DNA of 64,000 nt from a virus (IMGVR_UViG_3300009694_000016:27960-91959), one strand, 5' to 3'; shown: positions 2,577-29,888, numbered from the stretch's first letter. The notes: generated from the letters alone by a model not told the origin. Numbers and translations: made by a program.

Positions 2577-5500
2577 TTATCTGTAGAAAATTACAGTTCC
2601 CATTCCAAGACCTTCGTTTATATTTATATCTTTATTATTCAAAAATTTTGATCTCATTTTATAAACGTCGTGTTTAAATCCATTCTTCGTCATTTTATCT
2701 ATAACTTTATCCAATCTATTATCAGTATTCATATGAAATTCTAATAGAATTCTATCTATTTTTGATAAAGTAAATTCACTTATCTTATCAAATAATTCGT
2801 ATTCTCCGCCTTCTATATCTATTTTCATGGCGTTTATCTTACTTATATTATACATTCTGATAATATCATCAATAGTTATAGTTTTTACTTTTTTAGTAAT
2901 AATATTTCCAGCATCGTGTTCATTTTTAATCCAATCTTCTATTAATGTTCCGGCGTATGTTGTATTTTCAGTAGCCCAAAAATGGAATGTCAATTCTTTG
3001 TTACTTTCAGAATAAATAGCTTTATTTATAAAAGATACATTGGTATTATTTTTAAAAGTATTTAAAGTGGATTTATAACATTTATCATCTACCTCTACTC
3101 CAATTACATTTCTACAACCTTTCTTTAATGCGTAAGCTACAAAAGTTCCAACGCCAGAACCTAAGTCGACAACACAAGTATCTTTATCATTTAGATTTAA
3201 ATCTCGCCATACTTCATCATAGAAAGCTTCAAAATAATTACGAAATTCCAAACACGGAGTCTCGAATTCAAATTTGGTTGGACATATAGGCGGATTCTCT
3301 CTTAATTTTATATCTTTTTCAAACAATGTCCTTTTTGTTTCTACATCTTTAAACAATATTTTATAACCATTGAATTGATCATACATCTTATACAAAGGCT
3401 CGCCTGCAAATATCCAATAATTTCTATTATATTCGGAAAATTCTATATTAGAACTAAATATTGGAAAATAAGAATCTATATCAACTACCCAAATGTCATA
3501 AGATACAGCATCTTTTCCTTTATAAGTAAAATAAATTTTATTTTCTTCTATATTAAATGTGATATCTACACTATCATTTTGTGATGTTATTGGAAGAATT
3601 ATATCGCTATCTTTTACTTTAATTTCTTCAATTTCTATTTCTTTAATTTCATTTCTTTCTGTAAACAATCCATTTTCTAAAATATCTTGATAATTACCAA
3701 TATTAATATTAAATGTTTGTTTATCAACTTCTTGTTGTGAAGCGGAATCTATAAAAGATGCTGTTATATTATAATTATCACCATCTTTTAAAGATATTTT
3801 CTTTGAATAAAAAGTTCTATTTTTTATAAAATGAGTTGATTTCTCGATGTTTCCATTATTATCATATGTAAATTCTATTCTTCTATCATCTTTATTATTT
3901 GAAGAATTAAACCATACCATAAAACTAGCGGGTTGATCTTTAATTGGCAGTATCGCTAGATATTCAACTCCAGAGAAAATATTTATGTTTGGATTTTTAA
4001 ATAATTTTTCTTCATCTGTATCTTCAATTATGAGATCGTTAGTATAAGGTGAAAGTTTATTATAAAAATAATTCTCCAAGAAATTATGAGCTCCAACACG
4101 TTGACATTCTGCATTATATTCCTCGGGAGTACGAGTTTTCTTATCGAAAACTTTCGTATAGAAATCAACATTAACCATAAAGAATACAGATTTATATAAA
4201 GTCATATCGCCTTCTTTATACCTCATGAAATATCCTTTTTTATTTTCTTCTTTCATCTTATTTAGGATATTGTTAATCAATTCTATATTACTATTATTTA
4301 ATATAAAATCATAACTAACACTTACAATATTGTCATAACCAGCGGTTTTTGCAAACTTTATGGCATTTTCTATGTTAGTTAATACGGTTAATGATTGATT
4401 TAAATTGGATTTCTTTTGAAGTTTGTCTAGTCTTATCTCAACTTTACCGTTTTGCATCTCTGACCAATAAAAATTATATAAAGTATGAGATATCAAAGGA
4501 TTATAAGAATCATATAAATAATAATCTGCTTTTTCTTGCAAATTCTTAGAGACAGGATAATGTGAAGCCAATAAAATTCTTAAATTTGATTCTCTTAAAT
4601 TATTTAAACATTTATCAGTTGTAAATTCTTTTATTTTTGTATCTGGATATGTAAGAACAACAAATAAGTTTTTGGTATCCTTAGTAGAATCAATTTTTTT
4701 GAATTCTAAAGGTTTTGGTTCCTCTATTTTTTCATTTTTATTTCTTAATCTAAGTTGATGTGTAAATAAAATTTTATCATCTCTTAAATAATCCACTTCA
4801 AATCCACAGAAAGTAGGATCGCTCAAATAAAGATTTTGTCCGGGTTGTATCCAATTGATGTATTCATTATTGTTAAAACGCAAACCATCAACTGTAAAAA
4901 CATTGTCTTTTGTTTCAATATTTTTAACTCTTATGTCTAAGAAAACATCTTTAAGATTTCCTTTATATGGAAGATATAGTTTATTTTCTCCAATCTTAAA
5001 ATCTAATTCAAAATCATCTTTCGATGGAATTTCATCAACTTTAATATTTTTCATTCTATCTGTTTCTTTTTCCACTATTTCATGTAGTTCTTTTCTAACA
5101 TTTTCAGAATCAGGAGTCAAATTTATAGTTAATTTCTTGTTGAATAAATATTCTTGATTATGATAGAAATCAAAAGAAAATTCGTTGTATTTTTGATGTC
5201 CATATATTTGAATCCATGTAGGACTCATCGGAGAAAGTTTGGTTTTGACTGTATATATGTTTTTATTATTATCAGCATTTACGACTATAGATATATCATC
5301 AATATCATTTTGATAAAAATCACTCAAACAAAAATGAAATTTCTGATCTTCTTTATTAAATTCTACAATAATATCGTTTGGATTTTTATCTTTTAATAGA
5401 TTAGATAAATTTTTCAATAAAAAATGTTCTATACTTTCACCTTGAATAGCGGAATATCCTTCTTTTTGTGTAGTTAAACGCGGGGCGATTCCTTTTGCTT

Positions 5501-25082: not shown

Positions 25083-25727
25083 GTGAATAATCTAAAAACA
25101 TACGAGGAATTTAATTGGAAAAAAGGAGCAGCGACATTATCTATAGCTGGTGCTTTATCTGGCGGATTTTCTTCATGCGAACCTTCGGCTGATGTAGATT
25201 ATAAGGATCCAATTGAAGTAAATATTAATAAAGATAATATAGAATTAAAAGAATTATTAAAAATAAATAATATAAAACTTCCTTGTGTTATTGAGCTTTC
25301 AAATATTAATTGTGGAGTATGTCGAAAATATTACGTTAATCTAAAAAAAGTTTCAAAAAAATATAATGATATTAATTTTTATTATATTTTAACAGGTGAA
25401 GGTCACAACGATGATTATAATCTTAGAAGAAGGGGAGTGAATGCTTTTTTTACTAATAATAAAGCTTTCGATTTAAAAGATTTACCTGGTAATCAAGCTC
25501 CTTTACACGATGATAAAAATTTGGATAAGATAAGTATATCTACATCAGAAAATATTGAAAAACTTAGAAAAAATATAATGATGACTTATGATTTTAATGC
25601 TTTTCCAAGGACATTAATTATAGATAAAAACGGTAAATGTACTATTTTAAAATATGGATACATGGAAGAAGAAAGATTAGAAAGGTATGTTAAAAAATAT
25701 ATACCGAAAGAATTAAACTCCCGATGA
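25083..25727 (+). CDS. Thioredoxin-fold (TlpA-like) protein with CTS-like N-terminus
   Basis: CGVC active site, FPRTLIIDKNG cis-Pro motif; MNNLKTYEEF. Confidence 0.7.
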   Translation: MNNLKTYEEFNWKKGAATLSIAGALSGGFSSCEPSADVDYKDPIEVNINKDNIELKELLKINNIKLPCVIELSNINCGVCRKYYVNLKKVSKKYNDINFYYILTGEGHNDDYNLRRRGVNAFFTNNKAFDLKDLPGNQAPLHDDKNLDKISISTSENIEKLRKNIMMTYDFNAFPRTLIIDKNGKCTILKYGYMEEERLERYVKKYIPKELNSR

Positions 25728-26221
25728 ATAAAATAAAAATGTATAGAGAATACATTAAAGAGGATGCCGCTATTAAATGGTATGATAAGGGAAAATTTAG
25801 TGAAGATGATTCTGACGTTCCAGATGAACTTCCCGAACCAGATAAAGAAGGTGTAGGAATGCTACTTGGAAAAACTCTAAAATCTGTAGAGGTTGATGGC
25901 GATAGATATATTAGATTTCTAACAACAGAAGATGAAGAATTTATTATGTACCACGAGCAAGAGTGTTGTGAACATGTTCATATAGAAGATATAGTCGGAG
26001 ATACAGAAGATTTGGTCGGCTCACCAATACTTGTAGCGAGAGAAGATACAGGCCGCGACATTCCTTTAAGAGATTACGAAGAAAGTTGGACGTGGACATT
26101 TTATAATATAGGAACTTTTAAAGGACACGTAACTATACGTTGGTATGGATCTTCAAATGGATATTATTCTGAAAAAGCAGAGTTTAGAAAAATAGAAAAT
26201 GGTCAACCAGTATACTGGTAA
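25724..26221 (+). CDS. Conserved phage hypothetical protein with CTS-like N-terminus
   Basis: MYHEQECCEHVHIEDIVGD...WTWTFY...RWYGSSNGYYSE. Confidence 0.65.
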   Translation: MNKIKMYREYIKEDAAIKWYDKGKFSEDDSDVPDELPEPDKEGVGMLLGKTLKSVEVDGDRYIRFLTTEDEEFIMYHEQECCEHVHIEDIVGDTEDLVGSPILVAREDTGRDIPLRDYEESWTWTFYNIGTFKGHVTIRWYGSSNGYYSEKAEFRKIENGQPVYW

Positions 26222-26224
26222 GCA

Positions 26225-26258
26225 TAAAAAAACCAGACTCATCGAGTCTGGTTTTTTT
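26225..26258. terminator. Bidirectional intrinsic terminator
   Basis: aaaaaaaccagactc-atc-gagtctggttttttt. Confidence 0.85.
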
Positions 26259-26801
26259 GTGTCCTCTACCTCCACCTGTCTTCCTCCAGGTCGACGTTTC
26301 GTCTTATCGGATCCATTAAAAGGGCTGGTTAGAGGTTAACTTTGTAACATAACCTTCGTGTCGTTACCAACACAAGATAGAGAACGATGCTCTTAAATTG
26401 ATTTCTTTATGTCCGTCTATTTCATCTTTCTGAAGGATTACTTATGTCCGAAACATTAAAGAAAATGAAATAAAAATAATTTGATGAGATTCCTGACTAC
26501 TCATAATCCTCGGATTTCGTCAATCATTATTCGCCCACATCCCACAGAAATGATCGGTTTCAGTGTTTTACCCTTTCGGGTGGATGGGAGGTTTGGTATT
26601 CCTCCAACCAGATACAGCCATCATCGTGTTTTCTTACGATTTGTCTGGTTCTTACGTCACTCACGGTTGGCCAACCGTGGCTATTTCAGGTTTATGACAC
26701 AAAATCTGTAACACCCGCTCCCACGCTTTTCAGCGATGGGCTACAGTGCGTTGGGGGCTGGCTACCCCTCTATTCCGCCACAAATTATTTTAATTTCAAT
26801 C

Positions 26802-26813
26802 TTTCAAAGAACT
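26802..26813 (-). promoter_or_regulatory. boxA-like element AGTTCTTTGAAA (copy 3)
   Basis: Exact 12-mer repeat resembling rRNA-operon boxA. Confidence 0.6.
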
Positions 26814-26971
26814 TTTACTTTACTGGAAATGAAGTGTGGGCTGCTTCATTCCGATACTAGTCCAAAGGACTATCGGTTTTACTCTTCGAGGACTTCTGCC
26901 CGCTCTTCGTCTGTTTCCCCTGCGGCTCCTCAAGCATCCACAGACTATTCCCCTTCCTTACTTCCAGTTTT

Positions 26972-26983
26972 TTTCAAAGAACT
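26972..26983 (-). promoter_or_regulatory. boxA-like element AGTTCTTTGAAA (copy 2)
   Basis: Exact 12-mer repeat. Confidence 0.6.
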
Positions 26984-27179
26984 CGGATTGCTAAAAGGGA
27001 CAGAATTAACTGTATTGAGCTTAAAAGCGCCTTTTCGCAATCAAGAGCATTTAAATGAAAGTGAGTGCCCTATTCTCACAAGCGATAAAGATAAAGTCTA
27101 TTATATAGAGATATCTCAATCACCCAGCCATTCAGATCAATATTCCTTATAGGAACTCCTTGAATTTACAGCTTTTCAT

Positions 27180-27191
27180 TTTCAAAGAACT
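27180..27191 (-). promoter_or_regulatory. boxA-like element AGTTCTTTGAAA (copy 1)
   Basis: Exact 12-mer repeat. Confidence 0.6.
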
Positions 27192-27318
27192 TATTTGATA
27201 AGTACTGAGATTCAATTTATCAAATTTTTAATCCCTACTATTGGGTTGAAAGGTTATCTCGCCGTTCAGGATTCAGTCATTCTGTGGACTGATAATTTGA
27301 TTATCTCAAATTGATATA

Positions 27319-27326
27319 CAAAGATA
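27319..27326 (-). promoter_or_regulatory. Bacteroidota-type -7 promoter element
   Basis: TATCTTTG matches TAnnTTTG directly upstream of the ncRNA region; -33 TTTG not clearly present. Confidence 0.6.
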
Positions 27327-27617
27327 CATCAATTATGCGAGATAAAAAAACTTTTCTCAAAATTTTTTGAAAAAAGTTCTAATGTTTATTTCTCAATATT
27401 ATCTAAGAACTTTACTAAATCGTCAATAATAACAGATTTTATATTATATATATACCGGAGAATTTTTTTTGTTTTAGAAAAATTAAAAAATTTTTGAAAT
27501 TGGCAGATAGCTCAAAAAATCATTCAATTAGTATCATTGTCGTTTGCCCGGAGTGTGACGGTAGAGGATATATGGGGAAAAAACAATGTCCTATCTGTAA
27601 AGGAAGAGGAGAAATTA

Positions 27618-29888
27618 TCACCACTTACGCTCAAAGGGATTTCGAATATCTCCAGGTTTCTGATTAAATGGACTCAAAAAAGGAATAGGTTTTACATCAG
27701 GCTTAATTTTTGGATAAAATCTTTTATAAGCTTTTCCATAGGAGTTATAATCAATCATACTTCCATCATCTTTGTTTCCTAAGAATTTTAATAATAATTG
27801 TTTTTCTCTATCTGTTAAAACATAGTCAACATAAGAATCTACTAGATTCTTAAAATCTGTATGATCGAATAAACTTGCCAAATTGATCATCGACATAACA
27901 CAATCATCATTACCACTAGAAGATTTGAAAGTTATTTCACCACTCGGCGTTTCTTTTTTAGAGAAAGATTTCAATTCTATAACAGTACTATCATTATGTA
28001 AAACCATACTGTCTTTTTTAATAGCATCTTGAAAATCTTTCAATAACAATTTTTTGTTTTGACCTATTAAAAGACCCAGTTTTGGTCTTTGATCTGATTC
28101 TCTATGTTTATATCTTGTAAATATAGCATCCATGAAATCATTGTTATCATTGAAAACGTGACGCATATTGTTGATCAAATCATTGCCAAGATTCTTATTC
28201 ATTTCAACAACTATTTTTACTTTCTCGGGATCAAAGATTTCAAATACTAATAAATATAATATGTGTGCTATTTCGTTTATAGAATAAACATTATTTCTAA
28301 ACATACCTATTTGTTCAAGTTTGAAAAGATCGTACTTATTGCTGTAAATATCTTTTTTTCTTTCTATTGTCTTCTCGTCTTTCATCATTAATCTAAACAT
28401 ATTAAAGACTGAATAATCTAATCCTAGACCTTCAGCTAAATCAATTCCTATGGTTATATAATAATCTTTCGCTCTTGCTAAATCAAATAAATCTGGTCTA
28501 TCTTTTATGAACTTTAAACTGGTATAAGGAAGACTAAATTTCTTATCAAATATTTCAAGTTGTGGAGTTTCAAATTCTACTTGATCGCTTTGGAAACTTT
28601 CAAACATTACACTATCGAAGAGCAATTTATCATCTGTAATAAATTGAATTTCAAACTCTTGTTTGAACATACTAGGACCTCCAATAACTCCGGTCTGCTC
28701 TTCCTGCCAGTTTGTTATTCTACAAATCTCTGGAAGTGGAATAATATCATTAATTCTCACTTGTCTTATATCATCTATTCCACATTTATCTCGTGGAGTT
28801 TTTTCATCCTTCTCAAAAAACTTTATTAAATACCAATCTTCACCATCTATCTTTTTATAATATGTTTCATATCCTATTTCCTTTAGTTTTTCTATAACTT
28901 CTTCTTTTGTTAAATTATATTGGCGAAGGCGCGATTCTATAAAATAAAGTTTTGTATCACGTCTACCTTTAACTTGATACCAATAGACTCTCATGGGTTG
29001 ATATTTATTCCATCGTGGATCTTCGCGCGGACGCTCGGCGTCTGTTAATAACTCCCAGAATAAGTTATAACCATCTGGGGTGGAAGTAATGATAATTTTA
29101 GAGTTTTCGATTGAAGATACAGTAGGTACAACAGATCCGTAGTAAGCACGAATGATATTATCTGGAACTTTCGCGAACTCATCCAAATACAGTAAATCAA
29201 TAGCAAAACCGATAGCTGGTTCTTTAGATCTAGATTGACTTTGAACTCTACTGTTATTTTCAAAGGCTATTTGTTTCTCGTTCCAGTTTGTTACACCTGT
29301 TTTTAAGAAAAATGGGAGTAACTTATATATGTCTTTTATTTTATGTATAATTTCTTTTACGGTTTCTGATTTGTTAGCAACAATCATAACACCCTTATCA
29401 TCGTTGAACAAAACCAGATGAAGAATAACAATGGATGCTGATATTGTATTTAAACTGAGTATGTCGTTTGTGTAATAACTATGTTCGTTAGTAGCAATGG
29501 ACAGGTCGAACATAGAAACTTTATGTTTGAATTTCTCGATAGATTTGACTTTACTAGGTCCTCTTTTAGTCAAAACAATGTCTCCGATTGTTAAATTTTT
29601 AATATACTTTATAATATGACCTTCACAAAAAATTCCATGAACATCCGCACACTCTAGTTCTAAATCATTTTCCAATTTTAACCTATATATGTCATATGGT
29701 TGAGTTAGATTTATTTCTTCAATAGGAACAAACCCGTAATCAGTCTCAACAGACAAATTATTTATTTGAAAAAAGTTAATAACCTTTTTTAACGGATCTT
29801 CTTGATCGAATGAATAATTTTTATACTCAATTTTTTCTATCAATTCTATTAAAAAATAAATTATATTTTTTATTAAATTTTTAATCAT
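27618..29888 (-). CDS. terL: Terminase large subunit, C-terminal part, preceded by the C-half of a split intein
   Basis: aa 1-147 intein blocks B/F/G ending ILSLN; then T, Walker B LLYLDEFA, ITSTPDG coupling motif, FKQEFE, nuclease IGIDLAEGLGLDYS and GNDDCVM. Confidence 0.92.
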   Translation of the reverse strand: MIKNLIKNIIYFLIELIEKIEYKNYSFDQEDPLKKVINFFQINNLSVETDYGFVPIEEINLTQPYDIYRLKLENDLELECADVHGIFCEGHIIKYIKNLTIGDIVLTKRGPSKVKSIEKFKHKVSMFDLSIATNEHSYYTNDILSLNTISASIVILHLVLFNDDKGVMIVANKSETVKEIIHKIKDIYKLLPFFLKTGVTNWNEKQIAFENNSRVQSQSRSKEPAIGFAIDLLYLDEFAKVPDNIIRAYYGSVVPTVSSIENSKIIITSTPDGYNLFWELLTDAERPREDPRWNKYQPMRVYWYQVKGRRDTKLYFIESRLRQYNLTKEEVIEKLKEIGYETYYKKIDGEDWYLIKFFEKDEKTPRDKCGIDDIRQVRINDIIPLPEICRITNWQEEQTGVIGGPSMFKQEFEIQFITDDKLLFDSVMFESFQSDQVEFETPQLEIFDKKFSLPYTSLKFIKDRPDLFDLARAKDYYITIGIDLAEGLGLDYSVFNMFRLMMKDEKTIERKKDIYSNKYDLFKLEQIGMFRNNVYSINEIAHILYLLVFEIFDPEKVKIVVEMNKNLGNDLINNMRHVFNDNNDFMDAIFTRYKHRESDQRPKLGLLIGQNKKLLLKDFQDAIKKDSMVLHNDSTVIELKSFSKKETPSGEITFKSSSGNDDCVMSMINLASLFDHTDFKNLVDSYVDYVLTDREKQLLLKFLGNKDDGSMIDYNSYGKAYKRFYPKIKPDVKPIPFLSPFNQKPGDIRNPFERKW
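29448..29888 (-). mobile_element. Split intein, C-fragment (147 aa)
   Basis: LECADVH (block B), MFDLSI..HSYYTNDILSLN|T (blocks F, G); lacks block A. Confidence 0.85.

Follow-up and report, generated by a model that had tools for sequence, protein, structure and literature searches.

The 64,000-nucleotide stretch of viral DNA analysed here (the window; IMGVR_UViG_3300009694_000016, positions 27960-91959) is part of a 92-kb virus record, a fragment that CheckV rates as about 13% complete. On its minus strand, between positions 26223 and 27398, lies a segment that is free of open reading frames (ORFs), raised in GC content and made up of five folded RNA domains, which we number M1 to M5 in the minus-strand direction. 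The adjoining genes are late structural genes: tail sheath, tail tube and the C-terminal part of the large terminase. We found that this segment is probably a stable-RNA operon of a huge Bacteroidota phage of the Lak/LR756501 type, and that it is built like the ribosomal RNA (rrn) operon of the host. GC content is 0.42-0.475 within the operon and 0.18-0.30 in the flanks, in keeping with the difference noticed in a first-pass annotation of this DNA. The closest DNA relative of the segment is the uncultured 735-kb phage LR756501 (63% covered, 77% identity), and a core of 50-60 nt is also present in all Prevotella Lak megaphages.

The operon is punctuated by a 12-mer, AGTTCTTTGAAA, which occurs on the minus strand at 27180-27191 (copy 1), 26972-26983 (copy 2) and 26802-26813 (copy 3). 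The first-pass annotation had listed these as identical spacers, and an exact search of the 64 kb recovered the same three copies and no others; from base composition we estimate that about 0.03 exact copies per window would arise by chance. Each copy precedes, by 1-4 nt, the 5' arm of the helix that closes the following module. Copy 1 is 1-2 nt ahead of the closing helix of M2, copy 2 is 3-4 nt ahead of that of M3, and copy 3 is 3 nt ahead of the 5' arm of that of M4. Copy 2 is kept in one relative of the operon, L004, and its slot holds a different cassette in two others, L001 (LR756501) and L184.

The 12-mer had also been likened to the boxA antitermination signal of rrn operons, for which the gammaproteobacterial consensus is GYTCTTTAANA (PMC5725501). 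The likeness holds for rRNA leaders of the likely host phylum. Our test set comprised 120 Bacteroidota loci, each surrounding the start of a 16S gene, and the 102 with a leader of at least 300 nt were used. In the 500 nt ahead of 16S the top-enriched 9-mer is GTTCTTTGA, which the phage 12-mer contains exactly. This word is found in 46 of the 102 leaders, at a median of 129 nt before 16S, and in 15 of 46 16S-23S spacers; within 1.48 Mb of rrn loci it occurs 75 times, 47 of them in 16S leaders. The next-enriched 9-mers, TACCTTTGC and TATCTTTGC, represent the -7 promoter box (TAYCTTTG), with TAYCTTTGC in second place. A Prevotella rrn leader reads GTTCTTTGAAAGATT, the same context as that of copy 3, and BLAST matches between the operon and Bacteroidota rrn loci are confined to the promoter and boxA regions. 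Because GTTCTTTGA and TAYCTTTG are the top leader words, the phage has the same promoter box and boxA as the rRNA leaders of its likely host phylum.

The motif also accompanies other stable RNA genes of these phages. Written as AGTTCTTTGAA, it is found at the head of and within the tRNA arrays of LR756501, on the tRNA strand; inside a tRNA array of Lak-B2, about 20 nt after a TATCTTTG promoter box; and directly before a stand-alone M4 in L059, an unrelated contig of higher GC content. The presence of boxA in the operon, in tRNA arrays and ahead of stand-alone M4 argues that this phage group expresses its stable RNA genes by means of an rrn-type promoter-plus-boxA cassette. Several attributes of an rrn-type boxA are found together in the window. 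The sequence equals the leader boxA word of the host lineage, and all three copies lie within RNA-library contigs, with no conserved ORF and with a conserved promoter box upstream. Each is followed by a helix of the leader-trailer kind, which has 18 nt in M4, shows compensatory changes in M2 and is a single-sequence prediction in M3. Nus factors would be expected to bind the phage boxA by analogy with rrn operons, in which Nus, boxA and the leader-trailer helix have been described (PMC5725501) and for which Nus biology is set out in PMC4807359, PMC10250234 and PMC8632103.

The putative promoter box itself, TATCTTTG at 27319-27326 (minus), is of the Bacteroidota -7 type (TAnnTTTG). Taken alone, this 8-mer shows no excess in the window (8 copies against 6.3 expected), and its weight rests on conservation and context. 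The GTATCTTTGTATA box is invariant across the operon variants, and in L001 and L184 it is doubled along with its upstream TTTTTTTATCTC. Further upstream, a block at 27398-27470 (minus) is conserved in the window, L001, L004 and L184. It holds a TATATATAATATAAAAT stretch as well as TATATATAATATAAAATCTGTTATTAYTGACGATTTAGTAAA followed by a degenerate boxA-like AGTTCTTAGA (AGCTCTTTG in L001), and may represent the actual promoter or leader, or else a promoter peculiar to the phage. A sigma-70-like match within this block (TTGACG-17-GATAAT, 27426..27398) shows no conservation in the relatives. The promoter element named in the first-pass annotation is present at its place, but transcription may start upstream of it, as the RNA contigs reach further up. 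At the other end, the strong terminator that had been noted is indeed found at 26223-26261. It is of the intrinsic kind, has 18-nt arms (26223-26240/26244-26261) that are 94% complementary, and lies between an A-run and a U-run. Able to act in either direction, it ends both the RNA operon and the convergent gene at 25724-26221; a covarying terminator occupies the homologous position in L001, L004 and L184.

The stretch is represented in RNA libraries by single contigs of high depth. These span 26251-27398 at a k-mer depth of 1012 (X3), 26348-27381 at 1365 (X4) and 26260-27275 at 768 (X7), and a further sample, X18, holds a single 232-nt piece of M4 at a depth of 2.3. Contigs of flanking genes from the same phage (200-1400 nt, 0-1 differences) have depths of 2-20, and their near identity shows that the phage was present in the runs. 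Taken together, flanking phage genes reach 0-20, and bins of the 20-kb stretch that lack RNA-contig cover were left out of the interpretation. The operon contigs are 50-90 times deeper than neighbouring late-gene contigs in the same RNA libraries, a ratio that argues against DNA carry-over. High abundance of the operon RNA is therefore supported at the contig level. Adapter remnants at the contig ends have one orientation (read-1 side at 26251 and 26260, read-2 side at 27381), a weak hint that fits minus-strand RNA under the usual stranded protocols. Together with the G-U pairs, the co-orientation of tRNA genes in relatives and the terminator, this favours the minus strand, the one on which the first-pass annotation would have had to see transcription.

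The largest module, M4, is a multi-helix RNA of 333 nt (26466-26798, minus) and carries the strongest structural evidence. A perfect 11-bp stem at 26473-26483/26781-26791 had been recognised in it; the stem is there, but it forms part of a longer closing helix of 18 nt that is 94% complementary (26466-26483/26781-26798). Exact-word scans of IMG/VR and of metagenomes from gut, rumen and other sources recovered 34 distinct M4 sequences that form 19 clusters below 97% identity, so that the family has at least 19 distinct members, a lower bound. They belong to megaphages, including Lak, LR756501 and others. In a 19-sequence alignment (A6) with 12 helices and 75 pairs, standard pairs fill 93.7% of the cells, against 35-44% when partners are slid by 1-3 columns. 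Both sides have changed at 45 of the 75 pairs, a count reached in none of 500 shuffles, and the covariation score is 0.533, compared with about 0.1 for slid and 0.185 for shuffled alignments. Several invariant G-U pairs fix the RNA strand, and many junction nucleotides do not vary across a set of 19 or more divergent phages, which come from gut, rumen and sludge.

M4 keeps company with translation-related RNAs. Fifteen of the 19 representatives are in arrays of tRNA or transfer-messenger RNA (tmRNA) genes, all of which are on the M4 strand and none on the opposite one; in Lak phages, M4 is 11-15 nt from tRNAs on either side. Flanking tRNAs are absent only in the window clade and L059, where boxA and longer closing helices are found instead.

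These arrays hold further RNAs. A standard phage tmRNA with the tag GNYNPVYALA is encoded 18 nt downstream of M4 in L033 (2620-2962, minus), and a permuted two-piece tmRNA adjoins M4 in L060 (1342-1606, minus). In the M4-bearing tRNA array of L062, an 86-nt element (3034-3119, minus) matches the bacterial 23S rRNA model at 2128-2213 (53.8 bits, E 7e-13). We take these model positions to be the L1-stalk region, and the element may be a phage-encoded mimic of the binding site of ribosomal protein L1. Matches to the Y RNA-like family YrlA (RF02553) in M4-bearing tRNA arrays, at L037:2080-2203 (45.7 bits) and L027:2619-2731 (38.8 bits), are below the gathering score of 69. L035 encodes a tRNA with a CUA anticodon (called 'tRNA-Pyl' by ARAGORN), an amber suppressor, at a distance of about 1.8 kb from M4; it would agree with the TAG recoding reported for Lak-type phages.

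What kind of RNA is M4? The only recurring non-tRNA family among Rfam matches is manA (RF01745), with 15-24.7 bits in six of the seven M4 loci tested. A cmscan alignment of the L055 copy to manA includes the closing helix with the UGACUGAAUAA junction and the hairpin after it, UAAGG, the GNRA hairpin and the 3' hairpin loop (GGUAGUCAGGAGUCC versus GGUAuacAguAAUCC); about 163 nt of M4 appear there as extra sequence inserted within a single manA hairpin. The manA-like core elements are visible across A6 in a comparison with the model alignment rather than with manA seeds, and the window copy has the variants UGGCGGAAUAGA and GGGCGAAUAAUG. Because the scores are far below the gathering score and the window copy has diverged in the junctions shared with manA, M4 is best described as an apparent distant, enlarged relative of manA and not as a member of the family. 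An invariant hairpin of M4 has GGCC, GGCU or GGUC at the centre of its loop, all of them self-complementary if G-U pairs are allowed, a weak sign that M4 may be able to self-associate.

The remaining modules are constrained to different degrees. M2 (27022-27178, minus; about 157 nt) has 33 predicted pairs, 13 of which show compensatory changes across two lineages (z -1.78). The leader domain M1 (27221-27299, minus; about 80 nt) consists of a closing helix and three small hairpins; RNAalifold on four variants gave 20 pairs, two with compensatory changes, and the single-sequence fold agrees with this structure (z -1.58). M5, the 3' domain (26274-26436, minus), is closed by CCUUCAG (26430-26436) and CUGGAGG (26283-26289), a 7-bp pairing that RNAalifold found to be invariant among the four variants. 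Its conserved elements include AUCCGAUAAGAC and CCUGGAGGAAGACAGGU, and its GUAA hairpin (26358-26373) covaries in three lineages. M3 (26822-26968, minus; 147 nt) folds with a predicted closing helix of 9-12 bp (z -1.88; the opposite strand is lower, z -2.96) and is present only in the window and L004, in nearly identical copies. Covariation thus supports M4 strongly, M2 moderately, and M1 and M5 weakly, and lends M3 no support. The covariation that the first-pass annotation asked for is clearest in M4, with its double changes at 45 of 75 pairs. The view of the operon as a series of self-closed modules also holds for the folded domains, with one correction: two separate modules of about 63 and 75 nt at its 3' end are better seen as one domain of about 165 nt, M5, in view of the invariant closing pairing. 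Both GNRA hairpins that had been described on the minus strand, GAAA and GUAA, are present.

Four variants of the operon are known to us: the window; L004/L008/L185; L001 (LR756501); and L184, a 152-kb contig (IMGVR_UViG_3300028283_000002). They have in common the upstream block, the GTATCTTTGTATA box, leader domain M1, boxA copies, and M5 with the covarying terminator. The cargo between these conserved parts varies. M3 of the window and L004 is swapped in L001 and L184 for a cassette at the same slot whose sequence could not be aligned with it. The operon is thus kept within a small clade, and its cassettes are exchangeable. When it was compared by BLAST with Lak and three other megaphage records, M4 was the one module matched, and IMG/VR scans with the M1 and M5 motifs (a 17-mer for M5) returned only the operon clade besides chance coding matches. 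In L184 (8300-8640, minus), M4 is missing, yet boxA is retained together with the initial bases of the arm that closes M4, and an additional small cassette of about 90 nt lies between two boxA copies; the pattern looks like cassette loss and gain at boxA junctions.

Searches for known RNA classes agree with the first impression that the operon holds no tRNA, tmRNA, RNase P RNA or intron. ARAGORN found no tRNA or tmRNA in the stretch at default or relaxed thresholds. No Rfam family reached its gathering score, and at E<10 only terminator look-alikes and weak manA matches appeared in searches of 1.8 kb and 343 nt; there was no match to the Rfam models of RNase P RNA, SRP RNA, 6S RNA, rRNA, group I or II introns, GOLLD, ROOL, OLE or HEARO. 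Nor could the cores of RNase P, SRP, tmRNA, 6S or group I RNAs be placed on M4 by eye, a comparison that we set aside. The RNAs had been called unknown, which is correct in that no strong Rfam match exists and is to be amended in that M4 has a distant known relative. We found no literature description of noncoding RNAs of Lak or other megaphages, or of boxA-led noncoding RNA operons in phages.

Several observations weigh against the interpretation of this locus as an abundant, rrn-like operon with a manA-type cargo. The host is likely to be a member of the Bacteroidota, an assignment inferred from motifs and relatives. The three activated-sludge metatranscriptomes that supplied the RNA data were selected for holding the operon stretch, and their contigs give one depth figure each, in which strand, ends and processing are not directly visible. 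Moreover, RNA contigs extend 55-72 nt upstream of the TATCTTTG box, to 27381-27398, which points to a start of transcription within the block at 27398-27470 or to read-through from an upstream promoter. Comparative support is nil for M3 and little for M1 and M5, and single modules fold with z-scores that are modest (-1.0 to -1.9) and not strand-specific, for which reason they were not used as evidence. The manA gathering score of 55.2 is not reached: the best M4 member scores 24.7 bits (E 1.6e-4 on 381 nt) and the window copy 9.8. Finally, the loop variants of M4 that keep self-complementarity are few and all C-to-U transitions, which makes them weak evidence for dimerisation.

The abundance and variability of these RNAs could also be explained if they were decoys or antidotes against host defences, such as anti-CRISPR RNAs, RNA antitoxin mimics or sponges for RNA-binding proteins, instead of serving in self-assembly or translation. 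The high contig depth fits an arms race, as does the turnover of cassettes among close relatives, and the tRNA arrays of relatives hold mimics (the 23S L1-stalk look-alike and the YrlA-like elements). However, M4 is strongly conserved over at least 19 divergent phages, unlike fast-evolving counter-defence elements, and repeat units of the ToxI or CRISPR-mimic type were looked for and not found. We therefore regard this explanation as unlikely.

A different challenge concerns the 12-mer, which might be a recognition or processing site for a nuclease or phage protein, or a linker spread by recombination, instead of a Nus-loading boxA. Identical copies at each cassette junction would suit exchange by recombination, and one extra AGTTCTTTGAA in the phage record and one in LR756501 are in apparent coding sequences. 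Against this stand the rank of the motif as the most enriched word of Bacteroidota 16S leaders, its recurrence in 16S-23S spacers, its position ahead of tRNA arrays and stand-alone M4 in unrelated megaphage lineages, and its placement, always on the transcribed strand and shortly ahead of a long-range helix, which is also the arrangement of rrn operons. A role other than that of boxA thus seems to us quite improbable.

The rrn-like promoter box and boxA could suggest a decayed, captured host rRNA operon, or else an array of cis-regulatory leaders or riboswitches of a downstream gene. An rRNA origin was tried and rejected: when the 120 Bacteroidota rrn loci were searched by nhmmer with a profile of M4 and by blastn at sensitive settings with the whole operon, only promoter and boxA regions matched, with no 16S or 23S similarity besides. 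The 23-nt core of M4 (up to three mismatches) is also at chance level in 401 sampled Bacteroidota genomes, with three matches compared with four for a control pattern. A cis-regulatory role meets the difficulty that the terminator ends the unit and the gene beyond it is convergent, which leaves nothing downstream to regulate. Both versions of this idea are very hard to sustain. Least credible of all is a set of plus-strand proteins (such as the 138-aa ORF at 26736-27152), perhaps read with a non-standard genetic code like that of Lak phages. The window has open frames of 146 and 117 codons, but no relative keeps them intact under code 11, 15 or 4 (the longest antisense frame has 81 codons in L004, 66 in L001 and fewer than 60 in L184), TAG or TGA read-through rescues no conserved frame, there is no Pfam match, and covariation with G-U pairs fits an RNA on the opposite strand.

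The preferred reading, a phage stable-RNA operon modelled on that of the host ribosome, gains from comparison with known systems. It agrees with the first-pass interpretation, an antiterminated transcript of host polymerase processed into several stable RNAs, which was borne out at each point open to a test. Like bacterial rrn operons, the phage operon has an untranslated transcript, the same boxA word and the same -7 promoter box, and boxA stands 1-4 nt ahead of a long-range closing helix and is repeated ahead of successive RNAs, as before 16S and 23S. Unlike them, it is phage-encoded, lacks rRNA and tRNA cargo and contains three (up to four) boxA-bracketed modules of 150-330 nt, and its dependence on Nus factors would be by analogy.

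The manA RNAs (RF01745; Weinberg et al. 2010, PMC2864571) are phage-borne, as is M4, and in the cmscan alignment M4 family members appear to have in common with them the closing helix, the UGACUGAAUAA junction and following hairpin, UAAGG, the GNRA hairpin and, on the 3' side, a hairpin whose loop is of the GGUAnnCAGnAAUCC type. They are reported to form RNA-only cages of 8, 10 and 60 subunits via kissing loops (preprint 10.64898/2026.07.01.735769), an assembly that the self-complementary loop of M4 would fit. However, manA has about 190 nt, whereas M4 has 315-355 nt with a conserved inserted domain of about 160 nt; and manA is found in T4-like cyanophages, in 5' untranslated regions, whereas M4 belongs to Bacteroidota megaphages, in tRNA arrays or the window operon.

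Other phage systems share single features with the operon. M4 is a large, ornate RNA like GOLLD (RF01998) and ROOL (RF03087), but it is much smaller and has no Rfam match to either. GOLLD and ROOL are associated with phages and prophages, often beside tRNA genes, and form RNA-only multimers; we know of no boxA or processing-helix bracket described for them. The T4 tRNA gene cluster holds the stable RNAs species 1 and 2, to which no function is assigned, and resembles M4 of Lak-type arrays in having stable phage RNAs with or near tRNAs. The window clade differs from it in being without tRNAs and in using boxA and closing helices as punctuation instead of tRNA processing. Lambdoid nut sites (boxA and boxB with N) and HK022 put RNAs are likewise phage transcript signals that make host RNA polymerase resistant to termination, and lambda boxA uses NusB/NusE. 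In contrast to these, the boxA of the phage operon is the Bacteroidota rrn-leader word, is repeated, and serves noncoding cargo rather than downstream protein genes; we identified no N-like gene or boxB partner for the operon. The lambdoid role of boxA and Nus is mentioned in PMC5725501.

How might such an operon work? Host RNA polymerase would start at the Bacteroidota-type promoter, at the TATCTTTG box or slightly upstream. The nascent untranslated RNA would display three copies of the boxA of the host phylum (AGUUCUUUGAAA), and these may load NusB/NusE together with NusA, NusG and SuhB, as in rrn operons. A polymerase so equipped should be resistant to Rho and could keep the 5' arm of a module close to the exit channel while the 3' arm is still to emerge. 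The layout of each module, from boxA through 5' arm and folded domain to 3' arm, is like that of pre-16S and pre-23S rRNA, with the terminator last. The closing helices (18 nt in M4) would then be cut by RNase III or a similar enzyme to yield several stable RNAs. In the least certain step, M4 might self-associate via its hairpin loop UGGCCA into an RNA-only multimer like those of manA. Carried to its end, this scheme describes a phage RNA factory in which the transcription and chaperone machinery of host rRNA mass-produces self-assembling RNAs (an enlarged manA-type subunit and at least three unclassified domains) for RNA-only cages or scaffolds, with cassettes exchanged between megaphages. 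We put this forward tentatively and consider it doubtful in its full form.

The rrn-like operon suggests that Bacteroidota megaphages would commandeer the rRNA-specific promoter and boxA (Nus) system for stable RNAs of their own beyond tRNAs. With three units of boxA plus helix in 1.1 kb, it could serve as a compact natural test bed for the antitermination complex as a folding chaperone of long-range helices. Its several constrained and apparently abundant RNA domains are candidates for new RNA architectures and for steps in phage takeover, and M4 may link cyanophage manA to a much wider family in megaphages of gut, rumen and wastewater.

Just upstream of the operon, a 756-aa ORF (27618-29888, minus) contains a T4-type terminase large-subunit domain at residues 151-297. 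Its N-terminal part gives a weak match to intein splicing.

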